A model generated the notes under the pieces. The model worked only from the letters and a program-made list of their open reading frames with translations, had not been told where the DNA came from and did not search any database. A stretch of DNA of 61,291 nt from Parcubacteria group bacterium (GTDB lineage: Bacteria > Patescibacteriota > Minisyncoccia > Phycocordibacterales > Zambryskibacteraceae): NCBI GenBank assembly GCA_028286565.1, contig JAQBRH010000003.1, positions 1 to 61,291 on the forward strand, given 5' to 3'. A program made the translations under genes and the position numbers. Below, piece by piece: positions 2 to 23,810 of this stretch (the stretch's first letter is position 1; each line of letters begins with the position of its first letter).

Positions 2-1297
2 TTCTCGGCCGGAGTCGCCCGATCTACGAACAGCATCACCGTAGACCAAAACTTCTCTCCTACCTGGACCGGAGCCCACATCTTCGACAACATCACGAGA
101 TCGACGACCACGCAGGCGACGACGACGTCTCTTGCCGTGCTAGGACTCACCGCCTCGAACTGCGATGTTAAGTCAACAACGGGCGGAACATTGTTCTGCG
201 GAACAGACGCGGGTGCCGGCGCCGCTCCTCTCCCGAACTCCAAGTGGGCAACTTCGACCATCCCTAATTCAAACGGCATCTATGTGAACGGCGGAGCGGG
301 GACCGACGTCCTTATCGGTGGTGTTGCCACCACCTCGACTCAGAAGCTCGAGGTCATCGGCGGCGCCTATTTCTCCGGCAATGTCGGCATCGGTACCACC
401 ACTCCGTATGCCAAGCTCTCGGTCGTCGGAGAAATTGTCGGCGCCTACTTCACGGGGACCACAACGGCCACTTCGACCTTCGGCGGGCCGATCCAGGCGT
501 CGTCCCTTGTAAGCCTCTTGTCTTCGACCTCGGGGCTCACGTTCGGAGGCACATCCACTCCGTCGATCCTTACCCTCGATACTATCAATAGCCGAGTCCA
601 AGTCGGTCTCGGCGCCGGATCAGCCAGCCCTTCACTTCTCGTCCTCGATACCAAAAACACGTCCGGAGATCCGGCCGGCATCAACGGTGCGATGTACTAC
701 AACAGCAATATGGGAATATTCCGATGCTTTGCGAATTCCCAATGGGGAACATGCGGGTCCCAAGCTACAACCACGAAGGTGATGCTTTCGGATTGTTCTC
801 CGAAGATCACCTCGACCGATTTCGCTCCGGGCGGATCATGGTGGCAGCCTTTGGACATGGCGAACGATCTTATCGGCATGGGAGGATGGGCCTTCCAGGA
901 AGCGACGTCGTCCGAAGTGACGTGCATTGCCCACATACCGAAAAATATTTCCGCTTCCCCTAACGCCCAGCTTTGGAGCGCCTGGACATCGACCTCGACG
1001 AGTGCGCTGAGCAACGTCCTTGATATAGACATTGCTTCGATCAATCCGGCCACCGGCTCTGTTGATCCCGCCGCCTTCACGAATATTATGGCTTCAACCT
1101 CGGCCGCCAAACGCCTCACCGTCGCCGCCGCGGCCTGGGGCTCGGTGTCCACCTCGACTTCGATCGGCCTTACTCTGCCGAACACCAATGACCTGGTGGT
1201 GAGGTTTAGAAGATATGGAGCGAACGCCAACGATTCATCGAACTCGGATCTGTACCTGTGGAGCCAATGGTTAGAAGTTAAGGTAGACTCACAATAA
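2..1297 (+). CDS. secreted/surface protein, C-terminal part (5' end lies upstream of the window)
   Basis: The reading frame is open from nt 2 with no stop before the listed ORF 137..1297. The sequence is Gly/Thr/Ser-rich with motifs such as NVGIGTTTPYAKLSV. No enzyme motif recognised. Confidence 0.55.
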   Translation, partial: FSAGVARSTNSITVDQNFSPTWTGAHIFDNITRSTTTQATTTSLAVLGLTASNCDVKSTTGGTLFCGTDAGAGAAPLPNSKWATSTIPNSNGIYVNGGAGTDVLIGGVATTSTQKLEVIGGAYFSGNVGIGTTTPYAKLSVVGEIVGAYFTGTTTATSTFGGPIQASSLVSLLSSTSGLTFGGTSTPSILTLDTINSRVQVGLGAGSASPSLLVLDTKNTSGDPAGINGAMYYNSNMGIFRCFANSQWGTCGSQATTTKVMLSDCSPKITSTDFAPGGSWWQPLDMANDLIGMGGWAFQEATSSEVTCIAHIPKNISASPNAQLWSAWTSTSTSALSNVLDIDIASINPATGSVDPAAFTNIMASTSAAKRLTVAAAAWGSVSTSTSIGLTLPNTNDLVVRFRRYGANANDSSNSDLYLWSQWLEVKVDSQ

Positions 1298-1298
1298 T

Positions 1299-2081
1299 AT
1301 GAAAAAGATACTCGTCTTCGTTCTCGTCTGTATGTACACTCTGGGGCTGCCGGCGGTTGTTTCTGCCGCGTTGACCACCGGAGCCGCAACCGGCGACTAT
1401 ATAGGAATAGGATTCGATCCGTCCATCTCAAATATCGAAAGCGAATTTACTATTATGATGTGGATCAAACCAAACTCAACCATCAGCACGAACAGGGCCC
1501 TGGTCGGCACCAGGCCGAACGCCGCTAACGGCTCTTCAAATATGTCTCTTCGAACAGCGGCGGGAGCACCAGCTACCGATATCTCTCTTAGGCTCGCAAA
1601 GACAGGAGGATTGAGGTTCGACACCACAGATGCGCCTCTGTTGCCGGGCGAATGGACGTTCATTGCCGTGACTCACAGCGAATCCGCCTCAACGACGAAC
1701 CTGTATCATGGTTCGCTGCGCCAAACGGCGATCGAGAGCACGTATTCTTTTCAAAGCACGGTCACGGGCGCTCCTACCGCCTCCGGAGGAACGGACCCGT
1801 TCGTGTGGGGGAATAGATGGGCGCCGGGCGGCCCCACATCGGCGTTCACAGGCACGTTTGCCGTAGCCGCTATCATTAACAGATCGATTTCTCTCGGGGA
1901 AGTACGCGCCTGGCAGTATGCTCCGAGAAATATACCCGGGACGGTGAATCTGATGTTCTTCGGACTGGCGAGCGGCATAGGAACCCAGCCTGATTTTTCA
2001 GGATTTAAGAACATAGGCACTCCGGTCGGTTCGGTGACCTTTAACCCGGTGAACCTGCCGTTTAAGTGGTTCAAGCGTTAA
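1299..2081 (+). CDS. secreted LamG / concanavalin A-like lectin domain protein
   Basis: Has a signal peptide (MKKILVFVLVCMYTLGLPAVVSA). The pattern FTIMMWIKP...EWTFIAVTH...NLYHG is typical of Laminin-G-3-type jelly rolls. It starts 2 nt after the upstream stop. Confidence 0.6.
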   Translation: MKKILVFVLVCMYTLGLPAVVSAALTTGAATGDYIGIGFDPSISNIESEFTIMMWIKPNSTISTNRALVGTRPNAANGSSNMSLRTAAGAPATDISLRLAKTGGLRFDTTDAPLLPGEWTFIAVTHSESASTTNLYHGSLRQTAIESTYSFQSTVTGAPTASGGTDPFVWGNRWAPGGPTSAFTGTFAVAAIINRSISLGEVRAWQYAPRNIPGTVNLMFFGLASGIGTQPDFSGFKNIGTPVGSVTFNPVNLPFKWFKR

Positions 2082-2087
2082 TTAAAA

Positions 2088-2912
2088 ATGAGATACAATA
2101 CATCTATGACGAATTTCCTTAGACCGCTCACGATCATTCTCGCTCTTTCTCTCTGCCTCTCGCCGCTCTCTGTTTTCGGGCAAGCGGAAGGAGAAGTTGT
2201 GCCTGCAGATGCGCCGGTCACAGAGGTGGATCCAACGCCGGAAGGTGCGGAGCAAGTTACCATTGACAGTTCGCTTCTCGAAACAACGGTCAATCCCCAA
2301 GCCGACACCCTGACTCCGCAAGTTCCCGACGCTCCGCCTACTGATGATGCGACAACTACGCCGATCGATATTCCGCCGGATGCAGATCCGGTCTCCATGC
2401 CGGCTCCGGTTATCGCGCCCGATATAGCGCTCGTGATAGAAGTGGACGTTCTTGAAGTGACTCCTATGGATGTCGTGGAGCTCCAGCCGAAGAAAGAATA
2501 TACATTCGCTCTTCAAGGAAATACCATTCCCGCCAAGGCAACCACCGATTGGACCAAGAGCCAAACAGAAAAAGAAAAGTCTCGCCCGGTGAAGCAGGTT
2601 TCGAATGCCGTAGCGCTCGACGTTCAAAGTAACGGCGTTCTCGAGGTGTCCGGCGCGTGCACTGATCCGTACTACGTTGTTCTTCTCTACAAGAGCGCCG
2701 ATGATTATGACAAGAGTCCGGCCTCATATATATTCAACAAGGCGTTCGACTGCGTAGGCGGAAGATATTCGTACGCCATCTCCGATCTTCCGAAGGACCT
2801 CGCTTCGGGGACATACTACCTCCTCGTCGGGGGACAGGGCGCCAAGGGCGGATGGAAGCCGATCAGCTCGCTTGCGCCTATCGCCATAACCAATCAAAAA
2901 GATGCCCAATAA
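2088..2912 (+). CDS. secreted hypothetical protein (Pro/Thr/Asp-rich linker, C-terminal globular part)
   Basis: 274-aa ORF with an N-terminal signal-like hydrophobic segment. Same strand and tightly packed with its neighbours. Confidence 0.5.
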   Translation: MRYNTSMTNFLRPLTIILALSLCLSPLSVFGQAEGEVVPADAPVTEVDPTPEGAEQVTIDSSLLETTVNPQADTLTPQVPDAPPTDDATTTPIDIPPDADPVSMPAPVIAPDIALVIEVDVLEVTPMDVVELQPKKEYTFALQGNTIPAKATTDWTKSQTEKEKSRPVKQVSNAVALDVQSNGVLEVSGACTDPYYVVLLYKSADDYDKSPASYIFNKAFDCVGGRYSYAISDLPKDLASGTYYLLVGGQGAKGGWKPISSLAPIAITNQKDAQ

Positions 2913-3303
2913 CAACCGTTGGTTCAAAGGAAGCATTATCCTCCTCCTTTCCTTGGGGCTGTCGATGGCCGGTATCTCTATGAGAGGAGCCTCCCGAGAC
3001 CTCCCTGACGGCCTCGCTGATAAATTCCAAGCCGTGTTTTTAACCGACGGGCAAGTGTATTTTGGAAAGCTCGATTCATATAATTCGAGGTTCGTTCTCT
3101 TGAAGAACGTGTACTACCTGAAGGCTGCAAGCGGACTCCAGCAAAGCACAGCCGATACGAAATCCGGGCTCAACTTGATCAAACTCGGCGGAGAAGCCCA
3201 CGGGCCGGAAGGGGATATGTATATAGCCAAGGACAAGATCTTGTTCTTGGAAAATCTTAAGAATGATTCAGCCGTAGTTAAGGCCATCAAAAACACCCAG
3301 TAG
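2902..3303 (+). CDS. membrane-anchored hypothetical protein
   Basis: 133-aa ORF with one N-terminal TM segment. Overlaps the upstream gene by 11 nt. Confidence 0.45.
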   Translation: MPNNNRWFKGSIILLLSLGLSMAGISMRGASRDLPDGLADKFQAVFLTDGQVYFGKLDSYNSRFVLLKNVYYLKAASGLQQSTADTKSGLNLIKLGGEAHGPEGDMYIAKDKILFLENLKNDSAVVKAIKNTQ

Positions 3304-3782: not shown

Positions 3783-6149
3783 ATGCACGATATTCAAGCC
3801 AGCCCGAATTCGATCAAAAAAGAGCTCCCCGCGGAGCAAACGATCTTCTCGAAGCTTGATATGGGGAGGCTTGCATACTGGACGATCTCTCTGACCGTTC
3901 TTATCCTTCCTTTTTTCTTCATCCCGTCTTCTCTGGTCACCCTCGATGTGGCGAAGGGCATCATGGCTTCGGTCGGCATCACTCTGGCCCTCATCTTTTT
4001 CGTTCTTCATATCCTTGGGCGGGGCGAGTTCTCTTTCCCGCGCAGCAAACTTGCGTATGGGATCCTCGGGGTGCCGCTTGTCCTCGGCCTCTCGTCTTTT
4101 TTCGGGAATCCGCAGGCTCCTTCCTTGTATGCGTTCGGACTCGAGTCATACGGCGCTCTCCCAGTCATCCTCGGGTTTGTCCTCCTCCTCATCACTTCTC
4201 AGATCTTTGCCGTCCGAAAGAGGATCTTTTATTCATACTTTGCCTTGATCGTCGGGTTCCTTGTGGTTGTCCTCTTTGCGGTTCTAAAACTCGCCGTCGG
4301 GCCGGACACCCTGTCCTTCGGCGTCCTTATAGGCAAGTCATCTACTCCTGTCGGCGTTTGGACCGATGCGGCGATCTTTGTGGGGCTCGGCCTTATGCTC
4401 GTGGCGGCGGCGCTTGACCTTGAACTGCCAAAGCCTACGAAAGCCGTCTTGTATGCCGTGCTCGTCGTCGGCCTCCTCCTCCTCGCTGTATTTAATTTTC
4501 AGATGCTATGGATCGTGCTCGTTCTCTTTGCCGTCGTATTTTCTCTCTACAATTTCAGATTTCGAGCGAGGATCTCCGCCGCAGCCATCATCATCTTCTG
4601 TATCTCGAGCGTCTTTCTTGCTAACCCGGTTATCTCGTCGATCGCACTTAATGATCGCATTGCGAACGCGCTTCATGTCTCAAACATCGAGGTTCGCCCG
4701 TCTCTCTTGACTACGGCGGGGATCCTTCCTCATTCGCTGAAGAAAAATCTCCTCCTAGGCACGGGTCCCGGCACGTTTAGTCCTTTGTGGAATCTGTACA
4801 AGCCGGAAGGCATCAACCTGACGCCGTACTGGGGAACGAATTTCTTGTACGGGTTCGGCCTTCTCCCCACGTTCTTTGCGACCACCGGCATCCTCGGCAT
4901 CCTCGCTTGGGTATGGTTCTTCGCCTTTTATATTCGTACGGGAATACGGGCGTTGAAAGCACCGGAAACCGGCATATCGAATTTCTTTACCGTTTCTTCG
5001 TTTTTCGGCTCGCTCTTCTTGTGGGTGGCGAGTTTCCTCTATGTGCCGAACCTCACGATCCTTCTCCTGACCTTTTTCCTCACCGGGATTTTCCTCGGCA
5101 ACTCGGTTCTCCAAGGTGCGCCCCAGCGGACGTTCGTCTTTAAAGGTAAAAAAGCGGGAGGGTTTGCGGCGGCGGTCATGGCTATCCTTGTGCTTGTCGG
5201 AGGGGCCGCCCTGGGGTATGCCCTCGTTACGCGGGGGCTTTCAAGCGTCTACTTTAATCAGGCCGTCATAGAGGCCAATAGGGACGGGGATGTCGACCGG
5301 GCCATCCAAAGCTTGCACAAGGCGGCTTCACTTTCAGATTTTGATTTCTACTATCGCACGAACGCCGAGCTCACCATGCTCCGGATGACAAAGATGGTGG
5401 AAGGCAAGGCGGTAAATGAGGAGACGGGGAAACTTGTCAGCCAATCCCTGAACACATCTCTCGGCCTCGCGGGGTCCGCCATTGCCCGCGATCCTGAAAA
5501 TTATCAGAACCACCTCACTCTCGGCAGGATATATGACGCCCTCCTCCTTCCGCCGTTCTCGTTGCCGGAAGCGTATGAGAAGGCGAAGTCTTCGTACATG
5601 AATGCGCTCGCGCTGAATCCGCATGATCCGGAGATATATCTTCTCCTGGGGAAACTCGAGATCGAACACAACAACCTCGATGCCGCAAAGGGGTACATCA
5701 TCAAAGCTCTTGCCGAAAAGAACGATTATGTGGATGCCTATTTCCTTTCTGCGCGCATCGCTATCCTTGAAAATAATATCTCCCAAGCCCTGAAGGATTC
5801 GGAAGCCTTGGCGGCCCTGTCCCCGAACAACCCGGGCGCTTTCTTTCAGCTCGGAGTATTGCATTATAGCGCCGGAGAATATAAGGCAGCGGCCGAAGCC
5901 CTGATCCGGGCAGAAATGCTCGTGCCGGACTATGCGAACGCCAAATACTTCCTCGGCCTCACATATTACAAGCTGGGAGATGCGGGGCGCGCTTTGAAGG
6001 AGTTCCAAGACTTGCAAAAGGCCAATCCTCTGAACGCTGACCTTGCCTCGGTCATAGAAAACCTTCAGAGTAACCGCGATCCTCTCTACAAGATCAGCAA
6101 TGTAAAGACACGAGGGGAGTCGGTCACTCCGCCGCTCGGCACCCGCTAG
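3783..6149 (+). CDS. polytopic O-antigen-ligase-like membrane protein with C-terminal TPR repeats
   Basis: More than 10 predicted TM helices. LLGTGPGTF motif after the large loop. The last ~250 aa are TPR-like (AYEKAKSSYMNALALNPHDPEIY..., YKLGDAGRALKEFQ). Confidence 0.7.
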   Translation: MHDIQASPNSIKKELPAEQTIFSKLDMGRLAYWTISLTVLILPFFFIPSSLVTLDVAKGIMASVGITLALIFFVLHILGRGEFSFPRSKLAYGILGVPLVLGLSSFFGNPQAPSLYAFGLESYGALPVILGFVLLLITSQIFAVRKRIFYSYFALIVGFLVVVLFAVLKLAVGPDTLSFGVLIGKSSTPVGVWTDAAIFVGLGLMLVAAALDLELPKPTKAVLYAVLVVGLLLLAVFNFQMLWIVLVLFAVVFSLYNFRFRARISAAAIIIFCISSVFLANPVISSIALNDRIANALHVSNIEVRPSLLTTAGILPHSLKKNLLLGTGPGTFSPLWNLYKPEGINLTPYWGTNFLYGFGLLPTFFATTGILGILAWVWFFAFYIRTGIRALKAPETGISNFFTVSSFFGSLFLWVASFLYVPNLTILLLTFFLTGIFLGNSVLQGAPQRTFVFKGKKAGGFAAAVMAILVLVGGAALGYALVTRGLSSVYFNQAVIEANRDGDVDRAIQSLHKAASLSDFDFYYRTNAELTMLRMTKMVEGKAVNEETGKLVSQSLNTSLGLAGSAIARDPENYQNHLTLGRIYDALLLPPFSLPEAYEKAKSSYMNALALNPHDPEIYLLLGKLEIEHNNLDAAKGYIIKALAEKNDYVDAYFLSARIAILENNISQALKDSEALAALSPNNPGAFFQLGVLHYSAGEYKAAAEALIRAEMLVPDYANAKYFLGLTYYKLGDAGRALKEFQDLQKANPLNADLASVIENLQSNRDPLYKISNVKTRGESVTPPLGTR

Positions 6150-19663: not shown

Positions 19664-19735
19664 GGCCCTATCGTCTATCGGTTAGGACACAAGCTTTTCA
19701 AGCTTGGAAGCAGGGTTCGACTCCCTGTAGGGTCA
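19664..19735 (+). tRNA. tRNA-Glu(TTC)
   Basis: Acceptor ggcccta/tagggtc (G2-U71), anticodon arm caagc-ttTTCaa-gcttg, T arm caggg-ttcgact-ccctg. Confidence 0.9.
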
Positions 19736-19828
19736 TGGCATACGAAATGAGCGTCCGAGAGGGCGCCATTTTCGTACCATGACCCTAAGCAAGGTGACAA
19801 TTCACCTTGCGTCAGGGAGTCGAAAGGG

Positions 19829-19881
19829 TTTTCGTTATCGAGTATGCCGAGATCGAAAACCACCCGCGACGGTAGTCGAGA
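19829..19881 (+). repeat. 53-nt conserved module, left copy (inverted partner at 23472-23524)
   Basis: ttttcgttatcgagtatgCcgagatcgaaaaccacccgcgacggtagtcgaga. The reverse complement of 23472-23524 is identical except C/T at 19847. Confidence 0.95.
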
Positions 19882-19896
19882 CTCCCTGTAGGGTCA
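19880..19896 (+). repeat. exact 17-nt duplicate of the tRNA-Glu 3' end (G57 to discriminator)
   Basis: gactccctgtagggtca is identical to 19719-19735. Confidence 0.95.
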
Positions 19897-19973
19897 CAAC
19901 GGTTCCAAGTTATATTCCTCAACGTATTTTTCGTGTGGCCAAGGGGATAAAAACCACACAGATTATATGGATA

Positions 19974-20002
19974 AGAAAAAAAGGTTCAGCCGAAGCTGAA
20001 CC
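19974..20002 (-). terminator. intrinsic terminator of the 208-aa gene
   Basis: ggttcagc-cgaa-gctgaacc with a T-run on the minus strand. Confidence 0.6.
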
Positions 20003-20048
20003 CAAAGTCGAACATATTATATGCACAAGTACGGACATCTCGTCGACC

Positions 20049-20675
20049 CTATACGGTTGGGGACGCAATCACCTCACAAAAGTTGTGATAGTACCCTCTT
20101 CGAGAGGGATTAACCCATCTGATTTGGGCCTTCGTTGGGTAAGGTCCCCTCCCGAGTTTAGGAACCGAACCATCGGAAGTGAGAGATCCGTTACAGAGTG
20201 TGTCATCCCAGAAATCTTTTCCGCTCTCAACAAAGTGCTTGAGCCTTAGAACCAGACACTCCAGAAGCGTAACTCCAGGGATTTTGTGGTAAGCAAGATC
20301 GGTTGCTGAGGCAACCCGCCTTTCTCCATCCCGGATGTCATCCCTGAAACGGAACCAAACAGCATACGCACCGTTTTTGGGATTGCGATCGTTGTGACTG
20401 ACAAGCTCGTCGAGTGAGACCTCAGTGTGCTGATTAACCGATTTGTATTTCCATCGGTAGATCTCAAGCACACGCTCCAGTGTCAATCCTTGAGGGATGA
20501 CAATCACCGAGGAAATGGGGGCTTGGTAGACGGGCACCTTAACTAGCTCAAGGCTGATGCCGAAGTGGTTCCGGTAGAACTCGCGCCATTTTTCGATTTG
20601 TAGATCTGCACGCGGGTTGTTGAAATAATCGTACCACTGCTGTGGTGAGATTGTCCCAGTAGAAATTCTTGGCAT
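20049..20675 (-). CDS. hypothetical protein (208 aa, no recognisable motif)
   Basis: Start moved to MPRISTGT, which has AGAGGA 8 nt upstream. It has its own terminator. Confidence 0.5.
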   Translation of the reverse strand: MPRISTGTISPQQWYDYFNNPRADLQIEKWREFYRNHFGISLELVKVPVYQAPISSVIVIPQGLTLERVLEIYRWKYKSVNQHTEVSLDELVSHNDRNPKNGAYAVWFRFRDDIRDGERRVASATDLAYHKIPGVTLLECLVLRLKHFVESGKDFWDDTLCNGSLTSDGSVPKLGRGPYPTKAQIRWVNPSRRGYYHNFCEVIASPTV

Positions 20676-20822
20676 GATTGGGTCCTCTAGAAGTGGTGTA
20701 ATCGCCCAATCGTGGGCAATATAGGCTTGTGTATATAAGGAGCGACTTTTCAAACAATACAACATTTACCGAGATAATTCAAGTGGTTCATAAATGAGCT
20801 GAGGTAAGATATTTACACACCC

Positions 20823-20855
20823 GGTTCCAATCCTGTACAGCATGGGTCACTTGAC
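20823..20855 (+). repeat. T-arm-like intergenic repeat R1 with attached -35 box
   Basis: ggttccaatcctgtacagcatgggtcacTTGAC. A TTGACA-N17-TATAGT promoter follows. Confidence 0.8.
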
Positions 20856-20914
20856 AATCTAATACATTGTATATATAGTGCTTTTAGCCTGCACACTCAA
20901 CCTTTGAGGGAATT

Positions 20915-21304
20915 ATGAGCAAAAAGAATCCGCTGATCCTCGTTGCTGATACCGACGGGCATTACCGCAACGAGAAAGAGCGTATGCTCCGTGCACGAGG
21001 TTTTCAAGTAGTCCTCATGGACGAGGCAAGCGAGATTCTCGAGTTCGCCGAGCAACATCATCCGGATCTGATCATAACTACGTTACTCCTGAGTGGAAAC
21101 TCCGGCTTAAACGGAGGAGATGTCTGTGCAGCCCTCCGCCGTGGAGACGCGACGCGAGACATCAGGCTCGTGATTCATACCGGAGCAGACCTCAGACCAG
21201 AGGACATGCAATATTTTATTGCTCAGGGCGCCGACGGAGTCCTGCCCAAGTCGGAATCCCTGGATGGTTTGTATTCAGTGATCTGTGAGCTTCTGCGCAC
21301 ATGA
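20915..21304 (+). CDS. stand-alone receiver (CheY-like) domain lacking the phospho-acceptor Asp
   Basis: ILVADTDG...PDLIITTLLL...RLVIHTGAD...GADGVLPKS. Aligned by eye to CheY, T87 and K109 are kept but D57 aligns with Thr. Confidence 0.6.
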   Translation: MSKKNPLILVADTDGHYRNEKERMLRARGFQVVLMDEASEILEFAEQHHPDLIITTLLLSGNSGLNGGDVCAALRRGDATRDIRLVIHTGADLRPEDMQYFIAQGADGVLPKSESLDGLYSVICELLRT

Positions 21305-21313
21305 TCAATAGGG

Positions 21314-21338
21314 CCCCGATTTCGGTCGGGGTTTTTTT
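21314..21338 (+). terminator. intrinsic terminator
   Basis: ccccga-tttcgg-tcgggg followed by ttttttt. Confidence 0.65.
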
Positions 21339-21363
21339 CATATCAAAATTCCTGAAAAGCACC

Positions 21364-21413
21364 TATATACCTATAGACTTGGTTCCAATCCTGTATAATT
21401 AGGGTCACTTGAC
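21364..21413 (+). repeat. T-arm-like intergenic repeat R2 (extended form)
   Basis: tatatacctatagacttggttccaatcctgtataattagggtcacTTGAC. A TTGACT-N17-TATAAC promoter follows. Confidence 0.8.
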
Positions 21414-21466
21414 TTTTAATAATAATTAGTATATAACGCACTCCAGTTCTTTCACTGGAGGTTTGA

Positions 21467-21751
21467 ATGATACGCAGTAGCAAGAAACAACCTCTGCGCG
21501 GCGATGACATCGTGGCTCGCTTCCCAAACGGGTTAGATGTACCATCCTTTTGGCATAGTGAAGCGCAGCAGTACGTCGTCAACATCAGAGAGCCCATCCG
21601 ACTGTATCGTGATCCGAGCAATCGATTCGATGCCTGGTGGGTAGACATTTCTTCACTGTACGAAGAGGGTGAAGAGCCGAGGTTGATAAAACCTCAGTAC
21701 GCTAAGTACCCACTTCGCGGCAGTGCCAATCAATTCGTGATCCACGGGTAA
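21467..21751 (+). CDS. hypothetical protein (94 aa)
   Basis: ORF between repeat R2 and a terminator hairpin (gatctcacgc/gcgtgagatc plus T-run at about 21800-21830). Confidence 0.45.
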   Translation: MIRSSKKQPLRGDDIVARFPNGLDVPSFWHSEAQQYVVNIREPIRLYRDPSNRFDAWWVDISSLYEEGEEPRLIKPQYAKYPLRGSANQFVIHG

Positions 21752-21829
21752 GACGACAAACAAAAAGTCTTGTACCAAACTCCAGCCTTACAGTATCTCG
21801 ATCTCACGCCGTGCGTGAGATCTTTCGTT

Positions 21830-21874
21830 TATATACCCATAGACTCGGTTCCAATCTCGTATACTATGGGTCAC
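21830..21874 (+). repeat. T-arm-like intergenic repeat R3 (extended form)
   Basis: tatatacccatagactcggttccaatctcgtatactatgggtcac. Confidence 0.8.
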
Positions 21875-21921
21875 ATAAAGAGATACATTTTTCTCAACGT
21901 ACTTTGGTATAATACAGCCCA

Positions 21922-22821
21922 ATGAAACATGTAATTGAATCTCAACAATTTACTAGAGATTTAATTGATAAACTATTCCGTCTTGCTCATAAACTTGAGA
22001 AGAAGCCTGATAACTCTTTGAAAGGCAAAATAATGGCTTCAGTCTTCTATGAACCGAGTACCAGAACTCGGTTTTCTTTTGAATCCGCGATGATCCGATT
22101 AGGGGGAAATGTAATTACGACAGAAAATGCAAAAGAATTTTCCTCTGCTGCCAAAGGAGAAACTTTGGAGGACTCAATTAGAGTAATAAATAATTATGCC
22201 GATATAATTGTTCTAAGACACCATGAACAAGGTGCTTCAAAAAGAGCTTCTTTGGTCTCTGGCGTTCCGATAATCAATGCTGGCGATGGAATTGGACAAC
22301 ACCCCACCCAAGCATTGCTAGACCTTTATACGATCGAGAGAGAATTAGGGAAAATTGATGGCACTGTCATAGCCTTGGTTGGAGACTTGAAGCACGGGAG
22401 AACCATTAGATCCTTGGCTTATTTGTTAGGGAAGTATAAAAACATCCACATACAATTTGTATCGCCGGCTGCACTACGGGTTGGAAGTGATATAAAAGAT
22501 TACCTCACACGACATAAAGTTTCTTATTCAGAAACCGATGATCTCGAATTAGTCGTCTCTAGTGTTGATGTGGTGTATCAAACAAGGATTCAAAAAGAAC
22601 GATTTACGACCACAAAAGAATACCTCAAATATAAAGGCTGTTATCAGATCGGCACAACGTTGGTAAAACAGATGAAGAAAAAGTCCATCATCATGCATCC
22701 TCTGCCAAGAGTAGATGAGATCCTTTCAGAAGTTGATGCTTCACCTAAAGCTGCTTATTTTAAGCAGGCTAGGTATGGAGTGTTGGTTAGAATGGCACTT
22801 TTAAAATATCTCTTAAGTTAG
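21922..22821 (+). CDS. pyrB: aspartate carbamoyltransferase catalytic chain
   Basis: STRTRFSFE, HPTQALLD and HPLPR motifs. An extended -10 TGGTATAAT (21905-21913) ends 8 nt before the ATG. Confidence 0.9.
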   Translation: MKHVIESQQFTRDLIDKLFRLAHKLEKKPDNSLKGKIMASVFYEPSTRTRFSFESAMIRLGGNVITTENAKEFSSAAKGETLEDSIRVINNYADIIVLRHHEQGASKRASLVSGVPIINAGDGIGQHPTQALLDLYTIERELGKIDGTVIALVGDLKHGRTIRSLAYLLGKYKNIHIQFVSPAALRVGSDIKDYLTRHKVSYSETDDLELVVSSVDVVYQTRIQKERFTTTKEYLKYKGCYQIGTTLVKQMKKKSIIMHPLPRVDEILSEVDASPKAAYFKQARYGVLVRMALLKYLLS

Positions 22822-22923
22822 CAATTGCTAATTTGTATAATTATTGAGCCACCAGTACGGTAGCTTTTTTCATATCAAAATTCCTAAGGAATTCAGAACT
22901 GGTATAATAAGCGAATACCTACT

Positions 22924-23376
22924 ATGAAATCAGAAAAATCTACAGTACTGAGAATGGACAACATGGGCATCGTGGTAGAGTCTCTCGATGAGGTTGTTTC
23001 TTTTTTCATCGAACTCGGGCTCACGCTTGAGGGGCGGGCTATGATCGAAGGAGAATGGGCCGGCCGTGTTACCGGACTGGGGGACCAGCAGGTTGAGATC
23101 GCAATGATGATCACTCCCGACGGCCACAGCCGGCTCGAACTCTCGCGATTCATTACTCCGGTTGTAGTCGCAGATCACCGCCGGGCTCCCGTGAATGCTC
23201 TTGGCTACCTGCGGGCCATGTTCACCGTAAGCGACCTCGATGAGACGCTCGGGCGTCTTCAAACGCACGGCACGGAGCTCGTCGGTGAAGTGGTTCAATA
23301 CGAGAACTCGTATCGGCTCTGCTATGTTCGAGGCCCCGAGGGGCTTCTTATCGGCCTGGCTGAGGAGCTGCAGTAG
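22924..23376 (+). CDS. VOC / glyoxalase-bleomycin-resistance family protein
   Basis: MDNMGIVVESLDEVVSFF..LG and the second-half pattern LRAMFTVSDLDETLGRL...G..L. An extended -10 TGGTATAAT lies at 22900-22908. Confidence 0.75.
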   Translation: MKSEKSTVLRMDNMGIVVESLDEVVSFFIELGLTLEGRAMIEGEWAGRVTGLGDQQVEIAMMITPDGHSRLELSRFITPVVVADHRRAPVNALGYLRAMFTVSDLDETLGRLQTHGTELVGEVVQYENSYRLCYVRGPEGLLIGLAEELQ

Positions 23377-23454: not shown

Positions 23455-23473
23455 GGTGCGCGATACAGGATTC
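23455..23473 (-). repeat. exact 19-nt duplicate of the tRNA-Val 3' end (G57 to discriminator plus 2 trailer nt)
   Basis: ggtgcgcgatacaggattc is identical to 23660-23678. Confidence 0.95.
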
Positions 23474-23524
23474 TCGACTACCGTCGCGGGTGGTTTTCGA
23501 TCTCGACATACTCGATAACGAAAA
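23472..23524 (-). repeat. 53-nt conserved module, right copy
   Basis: Its reverse complement matches 19829-19881 at 52 of 53 positions. Confidence 0.95.
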
Positions 23525-23661
23525 TCTTACAGATTCTGTCCACTCATTGGATCTTTTGAAAAAAGCTCTCAATGAGTCTTGCGAAGCTCCAAGTATTCGC
23601 TTCTCACCCTTTCAAATCCTGCCGCAAAGCAAGCAGTTGCTTTGCTATCGCAAATCTCGGG

Positions 23662-23734
23662 TGCGCGATACAGGATTCGAACCTGTGACCCTCTCAACGT
23701 CAATGAGATGCTCTACCAACTGAGCTAACCGCGC
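23662..23734 (-). tRNA. tRNA-Val(GAC)
   Basis: Acceptor gcgcggt/atcgcgc, anticodon arm tctca-ttGACgt-tgaga, T arm acagg-ttcgaat-cctgt. Confidence 0.9.
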
Positions 23735-23810
23735 AGAACTCATATAAATTAGCTTAAAATCGACCGCCTGGCAACTCTACACAGGCGATCTTTAAGGTAA
23801 AATAAAATCT

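Follow-up and report, generated by a model that had tools for sequence, protein, structure and literature searches.

Probable att-like junction sites in a gene-cassette array at the tRNA-Glu 3′ end in Patescibacteria

The attC sites of integrons are imperfect palindromes that fold into a hairpin and carry R″/L″-L′/R′ boxes and the GTTRRRY crossover box. Patescibacteria (the candidate phyla radiation, CPR) have tiny genomes in which few mobile elements are recognisable, and the routes by which they gain genes are mostly unknown. Here we analyse a chromosomal stretch of 61,291 nt from a Patescibacteria/Parcubacteria genome (contig JAQBRH010000003.1, 53.5% G+C; hereafter the window), in which three short repeats, R1 to R3, separate small genes downstream of a tRNA-Glu gene. 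A sequence-only reading had seen in them a serial, integron-like array of cassettes, delimited by att-like scars derived from tRNA and lacking both an integrase and attC-type sites. Tandem arrays in other genomes, anchoring at tRNA-Glu, variable cargo and an insertion/deletion of exactly one unit speak for this picture, which has to be amended in that the sites appear not to be local scars; recombination at them is what we infer from these observations. We consider it probable that R1 to R3 are att-like junctions between gene cassettes, which form an array at the tRNA-Glu 3′ end and are moved by recombination that acts in trans.

Like an integron, the locus is built of tandem, mostly single-gene units of 0.3-1.5 kb that each end in a repeated site, with all sites in direct orientation from a fixed anchor, variable accessory cargo, and gain or loss of whole units. 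Unlike in integrons, the anchor is a tRNA 3′ end instead of attI, and neither IntI nor any other recombinase is encoded beside it. The site also differs from attC in being a linear conserved 28-mer with no hairpin and no GTTRRRY/RYYYAAC. Finally, cassettes occur on both strands, usually with a promoter and a terminator of their own, and an outward promoter may be carried by the site itself in place of a single cassette promoter (Pc).

The three repeats in the window, each listed as a putative junction site, are the following.

20823-20850, plus strand: R1, putative junction site of cassette 0 (GGTTCCAATCCTGTACAGCATGGGTCAC); site profile 27.3 bits, E 4e-7
21381-21408, plus strand: R2, putative junction site of cassette 1 (GGTTCCAATCCTGTATAATTAGGGTCAC); site profile 33.2 bits, with a conserved extension from 21364
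21847-21874, plus strand: R3, putative junction site of cassette 2 (GGTTCCAATCTCGTATACTATGGGTCAC); site profile 30.0 bits, with an upstream extension from 21830

All three had been picked out by the sequence-only reading, which had also placed each of them before a plus-strand gene, as the list of open reading frames (ORFs) and Pfam bear out, and had noticed that R2 and R3 share a stretch further upstream; indeed, these two form a longer 45-nt family at 84% identity. The pattern GGTTCCAATCCTGTANNNNNNGGGTCAC, allowing up to three mismatches, matched R1 to R3 only in the 61,291 bases, against 0.00 matches expected from 100 shuffles. The T-arm motif GGTTCNANTCY occurs 11 times in the window, where 1.39 occurrences are expected by chance. 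Eight of these lie in tRNA genes, three in R1 to R3 and none elsewhere, and this confinement shows that the resemblance to T arms is real, a comparison with chance that had been proposed from the outset. The donor originally suggested was tRNA-Val, at one base of difference. The likeness itself holds, since GGTTCCAATCCTGTA is complementary to the T arm of the minus-strand tRNA-Val at 15 of 16 positions; the better tRNA match of R1 to R3 is, however, tRNA-Glu. Their contiguous identity with tRNA-Glu is limited to TAGGGTCAC/GGGTCAC, and they carry a C at position 57 and a 6-nt insert.

The canonical site, GGTTCCAATCTCGTATAATTAGGGTCAC, is 28 bp long, or about 47 bp in its fuller canonical form. 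It consists of a T-loop-like block (GGTTCCAATCYCG), a 6-nt insert (canonically TATAAT) and TAGGGTCAC; in tRNA-Glu genes this last block is the 3′ strand of the acceptor, followed by AC. Because the tRNA-Glu genes at site-bearing loci end in ..GTAGGGTCAC, that is, in the right block of the site, the latter reads as a tRNA-Glu 3′ half, and its order can be read as T-loop-like block, 3′ strand of the T stem, 6-nt insert, acceptor 3′ strand, A and C.

Beyond the window, the search for further copies in relatives yielded 11 distinct Patescibacteria loci; 13 were fetched, including L001, a duplicate of the window, and L006, a duplicate of L003. An exact-pattern scan of 185,579 species genomes with the strict site pattern returned three, with one matching stretch each, and in all three the site reads GGTTCCAATCTCGTA(T/C)AATTAGGGTCAC. 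These are metagenome-assembled genomes (MAGs) labelled Saccharibacteria (L003), Nomurabacteria (L004) and ‘Burkholderiales’ (L002). A metagenome scan led to eight additional loci, L006 among them, and fuzzy and profile searches found variant copies in L005, L009 and L010, revealing arrays there, and none extra in the window. The canonical 28-mer is identical, at 28 of 28 positions, in five distinct loci (L003, L004 and the metagenome contigs L007, L008 and L012) of 32-42% G+C whose flanks are unrelated. Comparison of 15 copies column by column shows invariant outer ends (GGTTCCAAT and GGGTCAC) around a variable centre and variable inner arms, and sites of the R1-R3 type are conserved even where the T stems of the host differ. 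The sites appear, then, to be a conserved family travelling with the cassettes, not local scars of this genome's tRNAs. Scans of IMG/VR gave no exact match to the site pattern; blastn found neither the site nor module X (an insertion described below) in a phage collection, and no match for the site in a plasmid collection, so that an origin from phages or plasmids was rejected.

The resemblance to the T loop and acceptor strand of tRNA-Glu could also mean that the site is a structured element, either a tRNA-like RNA serving as a processing or stability signal at the ends of cassette mRNAs, or a single-stranded hairpin folded as in attC. Complementarity upstream of the site in R3 (ACCCATAG/CTATGGGT) and in L002 (GATTGGAA/TTCCAATC) would fit this, but the 5′ strand of the T stem is missing, the orientation of the site is independent of that of the neighbouring genes, and RNAalifold on 13 copies returned −0.66 kcal/mol with three pairs and no compensatory change, that is, no conserved fold. 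This consensus fold rejects an attC-like or RNA hairpin. ARAGORN and Rfam (at E<=1) detected nothing at R1 to R3, which leads to the rejection of a known RNA family and, together with the fold, of a tRNA gene, a tRNA pseudogene or a tRNA-like RNA. We regard a structured element as largely refuted and very improbable.

The second line of evidence is the position of the sites. In the window, R1 to R3 sit between a plus-strand tRNA-Glu and a convergent, minus-strand tRNA-Val. Wherever enough flank is available (7 of 7: L003, L008, L010, L011, L012, L024 and the window), the first copy of the site lies downstream of tRNA-Glu and on the same strand, 490-930 nt away in the six loci outside the window and 1087 nt away in the window itself. 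The gap between tRNA-Glu and the site holds one variable gene in L003, L008, L010, L011 and L012, and L012 also has a divergent tRNA-Ser(CGA), as does the window. The site is found at one locus per genome. It is thus not dispersed genome-wide upstream of housekeeping genes in the way that a plain promoter or operator motif would be, and since no copy lies outside 20823-21874 in 61 kb, a dispersed repeat (repetitive extragenic palindrome or miniature inverted-repeat transposable element) and a general promoter motif were rejected.

Arrays of small modules at a single chromosomal site are also formed by the integrative mobile elements exploiting Xer (IMEX) and the Xer-dependent dif/pdif modules of Acinetobacter plasmids, which share with this locus the lack of an integrase and a site of 28 bp. 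Those modules are moved by a housekeeping recombinase in trans, and here too the enzyme would be encoded elsewhere. The 28-mer is nevertheless unlike dif, whose 11-6-11 layout has conserved and partly palindromic inner arms, in that its outer ends are invariant and its inner arms and centre vary, which is the reverse pattern. All of its copies are in direct orientation, whereas pdif modules alternate, and it is tied to tRNA-Glu, whose end offers no 11-6-11 partner. Over the 61 kb, the cumulative GC skew gives a noisy curve whose minimum, at 18-28 kb, is shallow; the tie to tRNA-Glu in seven loci argues against a terminus-defined site. A dif/Xer reading of the 28-mer was rejected for its reverse conservation pattern and its link with tRNA-Glu.

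For comparison of the island as a whole we relied on L024, a locus in a Parcubacteria MAG whose TsaD is 67% identical to that of the window. Besides R1 to R3, the features of the window that matter here are given below; promoters, their -35 and -10 boxes and terminators are, throughout, predictions from sequence.

19664-19735, plus strand: tRNA-Glu(UUC), intact gene, putative attL-like anchor of the array (ARAGORN; Rfam tRNA, 57.6 bits)
19736-19879, plus strand: module X, a 144-nt insertion in the 3′ end of tRNA-Glu (repeat search, alignment, fold)
19880-19897, plus strand: displaced original 3′ end of tRNA-Glu (GACTCCCTGTAGGGTCAC), with a 17-nt perfect direct repeat of 19719-19735
19898-20822, minus strand: body of cassette 0, with the orphan orf208 (20049-20675) and a terminator at 20003-19982
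20851-21380, plus strand: body of cassette 1, with a receiver-domain-only response regulator gene (20915-21304; PF00072, 1.9e-11)
21409-21846, plus strand: body of cassette 2, with orf94 (21467-21751; no Pfam match)
21875-22821, plus strand: body of cassette 3, with an aspartate carbamoyltransferase-like (PyrB) gene (21922-22821; OTCace_N 5.7e-46, OTCace 3.2e-30)
22822-22852, plus strand: candidate decayed fourth junction site (..tttGTATAATtattGAGCCAC), from local alignment to the S3-to-glyoxalase stretch of L024, with 4 of 300 shuffles as good
22881-22892, plus strand: candidate decayed remnant of a tRNA-Glu 3′ end (CCTAAGGAA versus CCCTGTAGGGTA in L024), from a weak alignment
22924-23376, plus strand: glyoxalase/VOC gene, core flank and not cargo (56.5% G+C; 86% amino-acid identity to L024)
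23455-23735, minus strand: tRNA-Val(GAC) (23659-23735) with module X′ (23474-23658) (tRNA search, repeats)

The duplicate of the tRNA-Glu end starts at T-loop position 57, and the cassette array begins past its final C. Circularly permuted pieces of the repeats had been noted at 19884-19909 and are indeed present, the 19880-19897 part being the 17-nt perfect duplicate followed by C; the CAAC after it is the native flank in L013, another relative. Cassette 0 begins with aacGGTTCCAAG, a fragment of the left block. As already proposed, R1 and R2 run directly into promoters, TTGACA-17-TATAGT (11/12; 20851-20879) for cassette 1 and TTGACT-17-TATAAC (21409-21437) for cassette 2. The corresponding terminators are at 21310-21335, with the repeat TTTTTTCATATCAAAATTCCT next to it at 21333-21353, and at 21800-21822. 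Cassette 3 has an extended -10 promoter, TGGTATAAT, at 21905-21913, and its PyrB-like gene has 38.7% G+C against 53.5% for the window. The response regulator gene, orf94 and the PyrB-like gene each have their own predicted promoter and terminator. Because the glyoxalase gene is kept beside the M10 peptidase gene in L024, we count it as core, and the island in the window as 19736-22884, homology with L024 being back from 22885. The segment 22822-22852, syntenic with S3 of L024, is probably a decayed fourth site, on weak evidence, and 22881-22892 possibly an ancestral tRNA-Glu 3′-end remnant that would mark the right boundary of the island.

As here, islands that lie between an intact tRNA and a displaced duplicate of its 3′ terminus, with att-like direct repeats inside and elements lacking an integrase of their own, also result from the tandem accretion of integrative elements and of integrase-less cis-mobilizable elements (CIMEs) at the 3′ ends of tRNA or other genes, and module X has the identity block from T loop to 3′ end that is classic for tRNA-targeting elements. 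Unlike in CIMEs, the internal sites are no copies of the host tRNA end, given their C at 57, their 6-nt insert and a contiguous identity of 9 nt. They are furthermore conserved across distant lineages and separate single-gene units instead of multi-kb islands, and no integrase-bearing helper element was seen at the loci scanned.

Tandem arrays of two to three copies, all in direct orientation, were found in the window, L005, L009, L010 and L024. The last of these has the order tRNA-Ser, tRNA-Glu, methyltransferase gene, site S1, orf108, site S2, orf257, site S3, 39 nt, CCCTGTAGGGTA, glyoxalase promoter, glyoxalase gene and M10 peptidase gene. Site S1 is identical to R2 at 27 of 28 positions, and S3 has the same upstream extension as R2 (ATAGACTT). 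By blastn, L024 matches the window only in the tRNAs (Ser/Glu), the glyoxalase from 22885, the peptidase and the sites, and the cargo proteins of the two loci are unrelated to each other. At the far end of the L024 array, CCCTGTAGGGTA abuts the glyoxalase promoter. This is the displaced old 3′ end of tRNA-Glu, attR-like in position, and since this old end lies beyond the array, the whole array would have been built by insertion at the tRNA 3′ end.

Further evidence comes from L010 and L011, whose contigs are about 95% identical: L010 has exactly one unit more than L011, measuring 1458 nt from site to site. The sequence common to the two L010 sites is only the 28-mer and about 4 flanking nucleotides. 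The two differ from each other at positions 6, 20 and 21, and at all of these the single L011 site agrees with the left-hand one; the exchange would accordingly lie no earlier than position 21, within GGGTCAC(acg). The indel also indicates that each site goes with the left-hand cassette, of which it appears as the 3′ end, and is not the promoter of the right-hand gene.

Comparison of cassette content between relatives, which the sequence-only reading had recommended, thus shows that it differs, between the window and L024 and by one unit between L010 and L011; nor is island content invariant elsewhere, L013 having a different set of small genes past tRNA-Glu. Overall, the cargo comprises the response regulator, orf94, PyrB, a methyltransferase, a HAD-type protein and a Gabija pair, on either strand, and other cargo includes an ArsP permease, an APH kinase and an endonuclease/exonuclease/phosphatase (EEP) family protein. 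The HAD-type ORF, assigned to this type from its DWDGTLG N-terminus only, occupies different array positions in L008 and L009. The Gabija pair is in L002 (GajA 5.8e-117, GajB 9.8e-56).

These observations can be joined in a mechanism. The unit would be one accessory gene, on either strand and usually with its own promoter and terminator, with the site at its right end. Units would be gained and lost whole, with the exchange point in the terminal GGGTCAC, each recombining with the identical tRNA-Glu end or with a resident site. As GGGTCAC is common to the site and the tRNA-Glu 3′ end, the tRNA would remain intact and a new unit would land beside it or beside an existing site, and each insertion would push older units and the old flank rightward. 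The enzyme, not encoded nearby, would act in trans. A more ambitious and only tentative proposal is that Patescibacteria possess an integron-like platform with no integrase gene at the locus, in which the tRNA-Glu 3′ end plays the part of attI, the tRNA-Glu-derived 28-bp site that of an attC with a built-in outward promoter, and single accessory genes, defence systems like Gabija among them, are inserted, stacked and expressed by way of a trans-acting recombinase at GGGTCAC.

Several results weigh against movement by site-specific recombination. Pfam detected no recombinase domain in 50 of the 66 non-overlapping ORFs of at least 90 aa in the window, including all of at least 215 aa, and its domain-less ORFs gave no recombinase even at E<0.1. 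Among these, orf208, which has no Pfam match and a single distant homologue, was rejected as a recombinase, being an orphan and not a conserved enzyme. No recombinase or integrase was found among the ORFs scanned around the site in L002-L010, the gene calls of the 19-kb L024 locus contain neither, and no circular or empty-site forms were observed. To the right of GGGTCAC there is no conservation among copies, which is unusual for the core sites of tyrosine or serine recombinases. With conserved sequence only to the left of the junction, a nicking enzyme of the HUH type would be conceivable, and so would exchange driven by homology following transformation. The three L024 sites have changed little in their left 19 nt (1 change in 57) and have decayed in the right 9 nt (7 in 27), and this suggests that some other role, for instance as a promoter, preserves the left block and TATAAT. 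A stretch of about 25 nt past GGGTCAC is common in L010 to the tRNA flank and the far flank of the array, a hint of homologous exchange. To this must be added the small sample of loci beyond the window and the rarity of the site among species genomes.

Part of this evidence would be accounted for if the stretch past tRNA-Glu were simply a hotspot in which cassettes are swapped by natural transformation and homologous or homology-facilitated recombination, with tRNA-Glu and the site as anchors; the sites would then persist because cassettes that bear them spread. The absence of a recombinase near the arrays, the confinement of inter-unit homology to the 28-mer, the 25-nt stretch of L010, the different terminator hairpins of L010 and L011 within identical flanks, and the bracketing of variable content by tRNA-Glu and glyoxalase all agree with such a process. 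It would recall the minimal mobile elements of Neisseria, hotspots exchanged by transformation in which, as here, conserved flanks hold different genes and no dedicated mobility gene is present, but those lack a repeated junction site that separates units and forms arrays. On the other hand, 28 nt is very little homology for one arm of a RecA-type exchange, a simple double crossover leaves the growth of the array by whole units in direct orientation unexplained, and the same is true of the strict co-orientation with the tRNA and the 28/28 identity across distant lineages. We hold exchange by homology alone to be unlikely, though worth keeping in mind.

The 6-nt insert raises the question of whether the site is a promoter. 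In canonical copies, TTGAAT, TTGAAC or TTGGAA is followed by 17 nt and TATAAT (a fit of 10/12 to the -35 and -10 consensus), the -35 box being supplied by a moderately conserved upstream sequence, TGATTGAA, exactly 17 nt before TATAAT; in L003, TTGAAT-17-TATAAT lies in the site. The canonical site would in this way carry an outward promoter, with transcription from about GGGTCAC into the next unit, and orf257 of L024, which starts 22 nt past the TATAAT of S2, has no promoter of its own. It could be argued that the element is nothing else, a sigma-70-type promoter with -35 TTGAAT, a 17-nt spacer that holds an operator, and -10 TATAAT, copied along with accessory genes and without any role in their movement, as the better preservation of the left block and TATAAT than of GGGTCAC in L024 and the promoters adjoining R1 and R2 would also allow. 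Against this, the window copies have poor -35 boxes (0-2/6) and R1 a poor -10 (3/6), L004, L005 and L010 have a minus-strand gene downstream, neighbours of the site being found on both strands, and promoter-like matches are not above chance in AT-rich stretches. Nor would a mere promoter explain why each genome has the element at a single locus, which is always downstream of tRNA-Glu and in its orientation, why its right end is the tRNA-Glu 3′ end, or why the L010/L011 unit borders exactly at it. We therefore view a promoter or operator without further function as quite improbable. Since the window copies have weak boxes and the cassettes after them bring their own promoters, promoter activity is not the whole explanation, and an outward promoter is plausible as a second function of the junction site.

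If the junction-site interpretation is right, the finding points to a compact cassette system with a tRNA gene as anchor, a junction site of its own and possibly its own promoter, spanning lineages recorded as Saccharibacteria, Nomurabacteria and Parcubacteria. It would explain how Patescibacteria pick up single accessory and defence genes and define a new type of recombination site to look for, and in those few members that can be grown in culture it could serve genetic tools as a natural landing pad. Should the sites be only promoters or homology anchors, the locus would still be a well-defined hypervariable hotspot. Neither the site nor Patescibacteria cassette arrays at tRNA-Glu were found described in keyword and sequence-string searches of the literature.

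The assignment of the window to the chromosome of a Patescibacteria member agrees with its gene content, which includes MurJ, LepA, LeuRS, TsaD, FtsZ, FtsA, GyrA, IF-2, ClpB and 11 tRNAs, and the top matches of its TsaD are Patescibacteria MAGs. The island is also contained in the read set SRR13312974. In L018, the closest relative (TsaD 88%), the contig ends exactly after GACTCCCTGTAGGGTCAC with its GGGTCAC, an assembly break that speaks for the cassette reading. L013 and L015 (TsaD 66-69%) have variable small genes, with neither the 28-mer nor another junction repeat.

Both convergent tRNAs of the window carry an insertion at their 3′ end, of 144 nt in tRNA-Glu and about 186 nt in tRNA-Val. 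Each is bordered by a perfect second copy of the tRNA segment that runs from position 57, in the T loop, to the 3′ end; this copy measures 17 nt in the case of Glu and 19 nt (23455-23473) in that of Val. Each module contains an antisense copy of the 3′ end of its own tRNA, split by a GCAAG..CTTGC hairpin; in module X, which also has a terminator hairpin, this copy is split by a 25-nt hairpin (19780-19824). Modules X and X′ further share a 57-nt block, 96% identical and inverted (19829-19885 and 23468-23524). They look like remnants of integrase att sites, a reading that does not account for their target-matched antisense halves. Because these halves match the tRNA that holds the module, a guide function as in bridge RNA was considered; it was set aside, as both halves pair with the same strand and a duplication of 17-19 nt that starts in the T loop better fits a classical integrase identity block. 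Module X is missing in L013 and L024, where the tRNA runs directly into GGGTCAC and the cassette, and L018 has a different module X at the same place. Inserts like module X follow tRNA-Glu in L018 (1-230, reverse strand), L008, L010 and L011, with differing interiors and recurring pieces (AGTCGAAAG.. and GCGCGACGG). In the first ~47 nt past the tRNA, the nearly identical L010 and L011 have wholly different terminator hairpins, bracketed by GGGTCAC and an inverted GTGA.

Smaller pieces of the site and other repeats recur as well. The sequence GGTTCCAAG, the first eight bases of the site plus G, is found in the window at 19901-19909, 3 nt past the displaced tRNA-Glu end, and in L005 (oriented) at 745-753, 33 nt past a full site; it may be a broken left block. 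The 21-nt repeat TTTTTTCATATCAAAATTCCT is present in two perfect copies, 21333-21353 and 22865-22885, one behind the terminator of the response-regulator cassette and one behind that of pyrB, and the similar TTTTTTCATAT follows a terminator in L015 (6110-6121).

Regarding the cargo, the complete Gabija pair of L002 (JAMPXW010000004.1, oriented 482-3087) ends 25 nt before the site. The label Burkholderiales of this contig sits beside 31% G+C, CPR-like neighbours and MurF- and PBP-like genes 43-57% identical to those of the Saccharibacteria-type loci L003 and L011 by translated comparison, and it is probably a mis-binned Patescibacteria contig. L004 (oriented, 3944-4927) and L005 (oriented, 1274-2539) have the same minus-strand EEP-family gene next to the site. 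In L005, an additional APH phosphotransferase gene, starting 7 nt past the site, is placed between the two, with no second site on its far side. Homologues of the PyrB-like protein, 73-85% identical, occur in many Patescibacteria lineages (Moranbacteria, Paceibacterota and others), unusually strong conservation for a gene whose origin in the window appears to be horizontal; the three contexts fetched for them were without the site.

Lastly, the flanking genes differ in arrangement and divergence. The window and L024 share 86% identity in the glyoxalase, even though TsaD is just 67% identical. The tRNA-Val gene lies between the glyoxalase and M10 peptidase genes in the window (23659-23735), beside tRNA-Ser in L024 (7144-7217), and beside the M10 peptidase gene in L013 (1008-1081), where DUF5667 stands between tRNA-Val and tRNA-Ser. 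By this comparison of gene order, the tRNA cluster appears rearranged in the lineage of the window.

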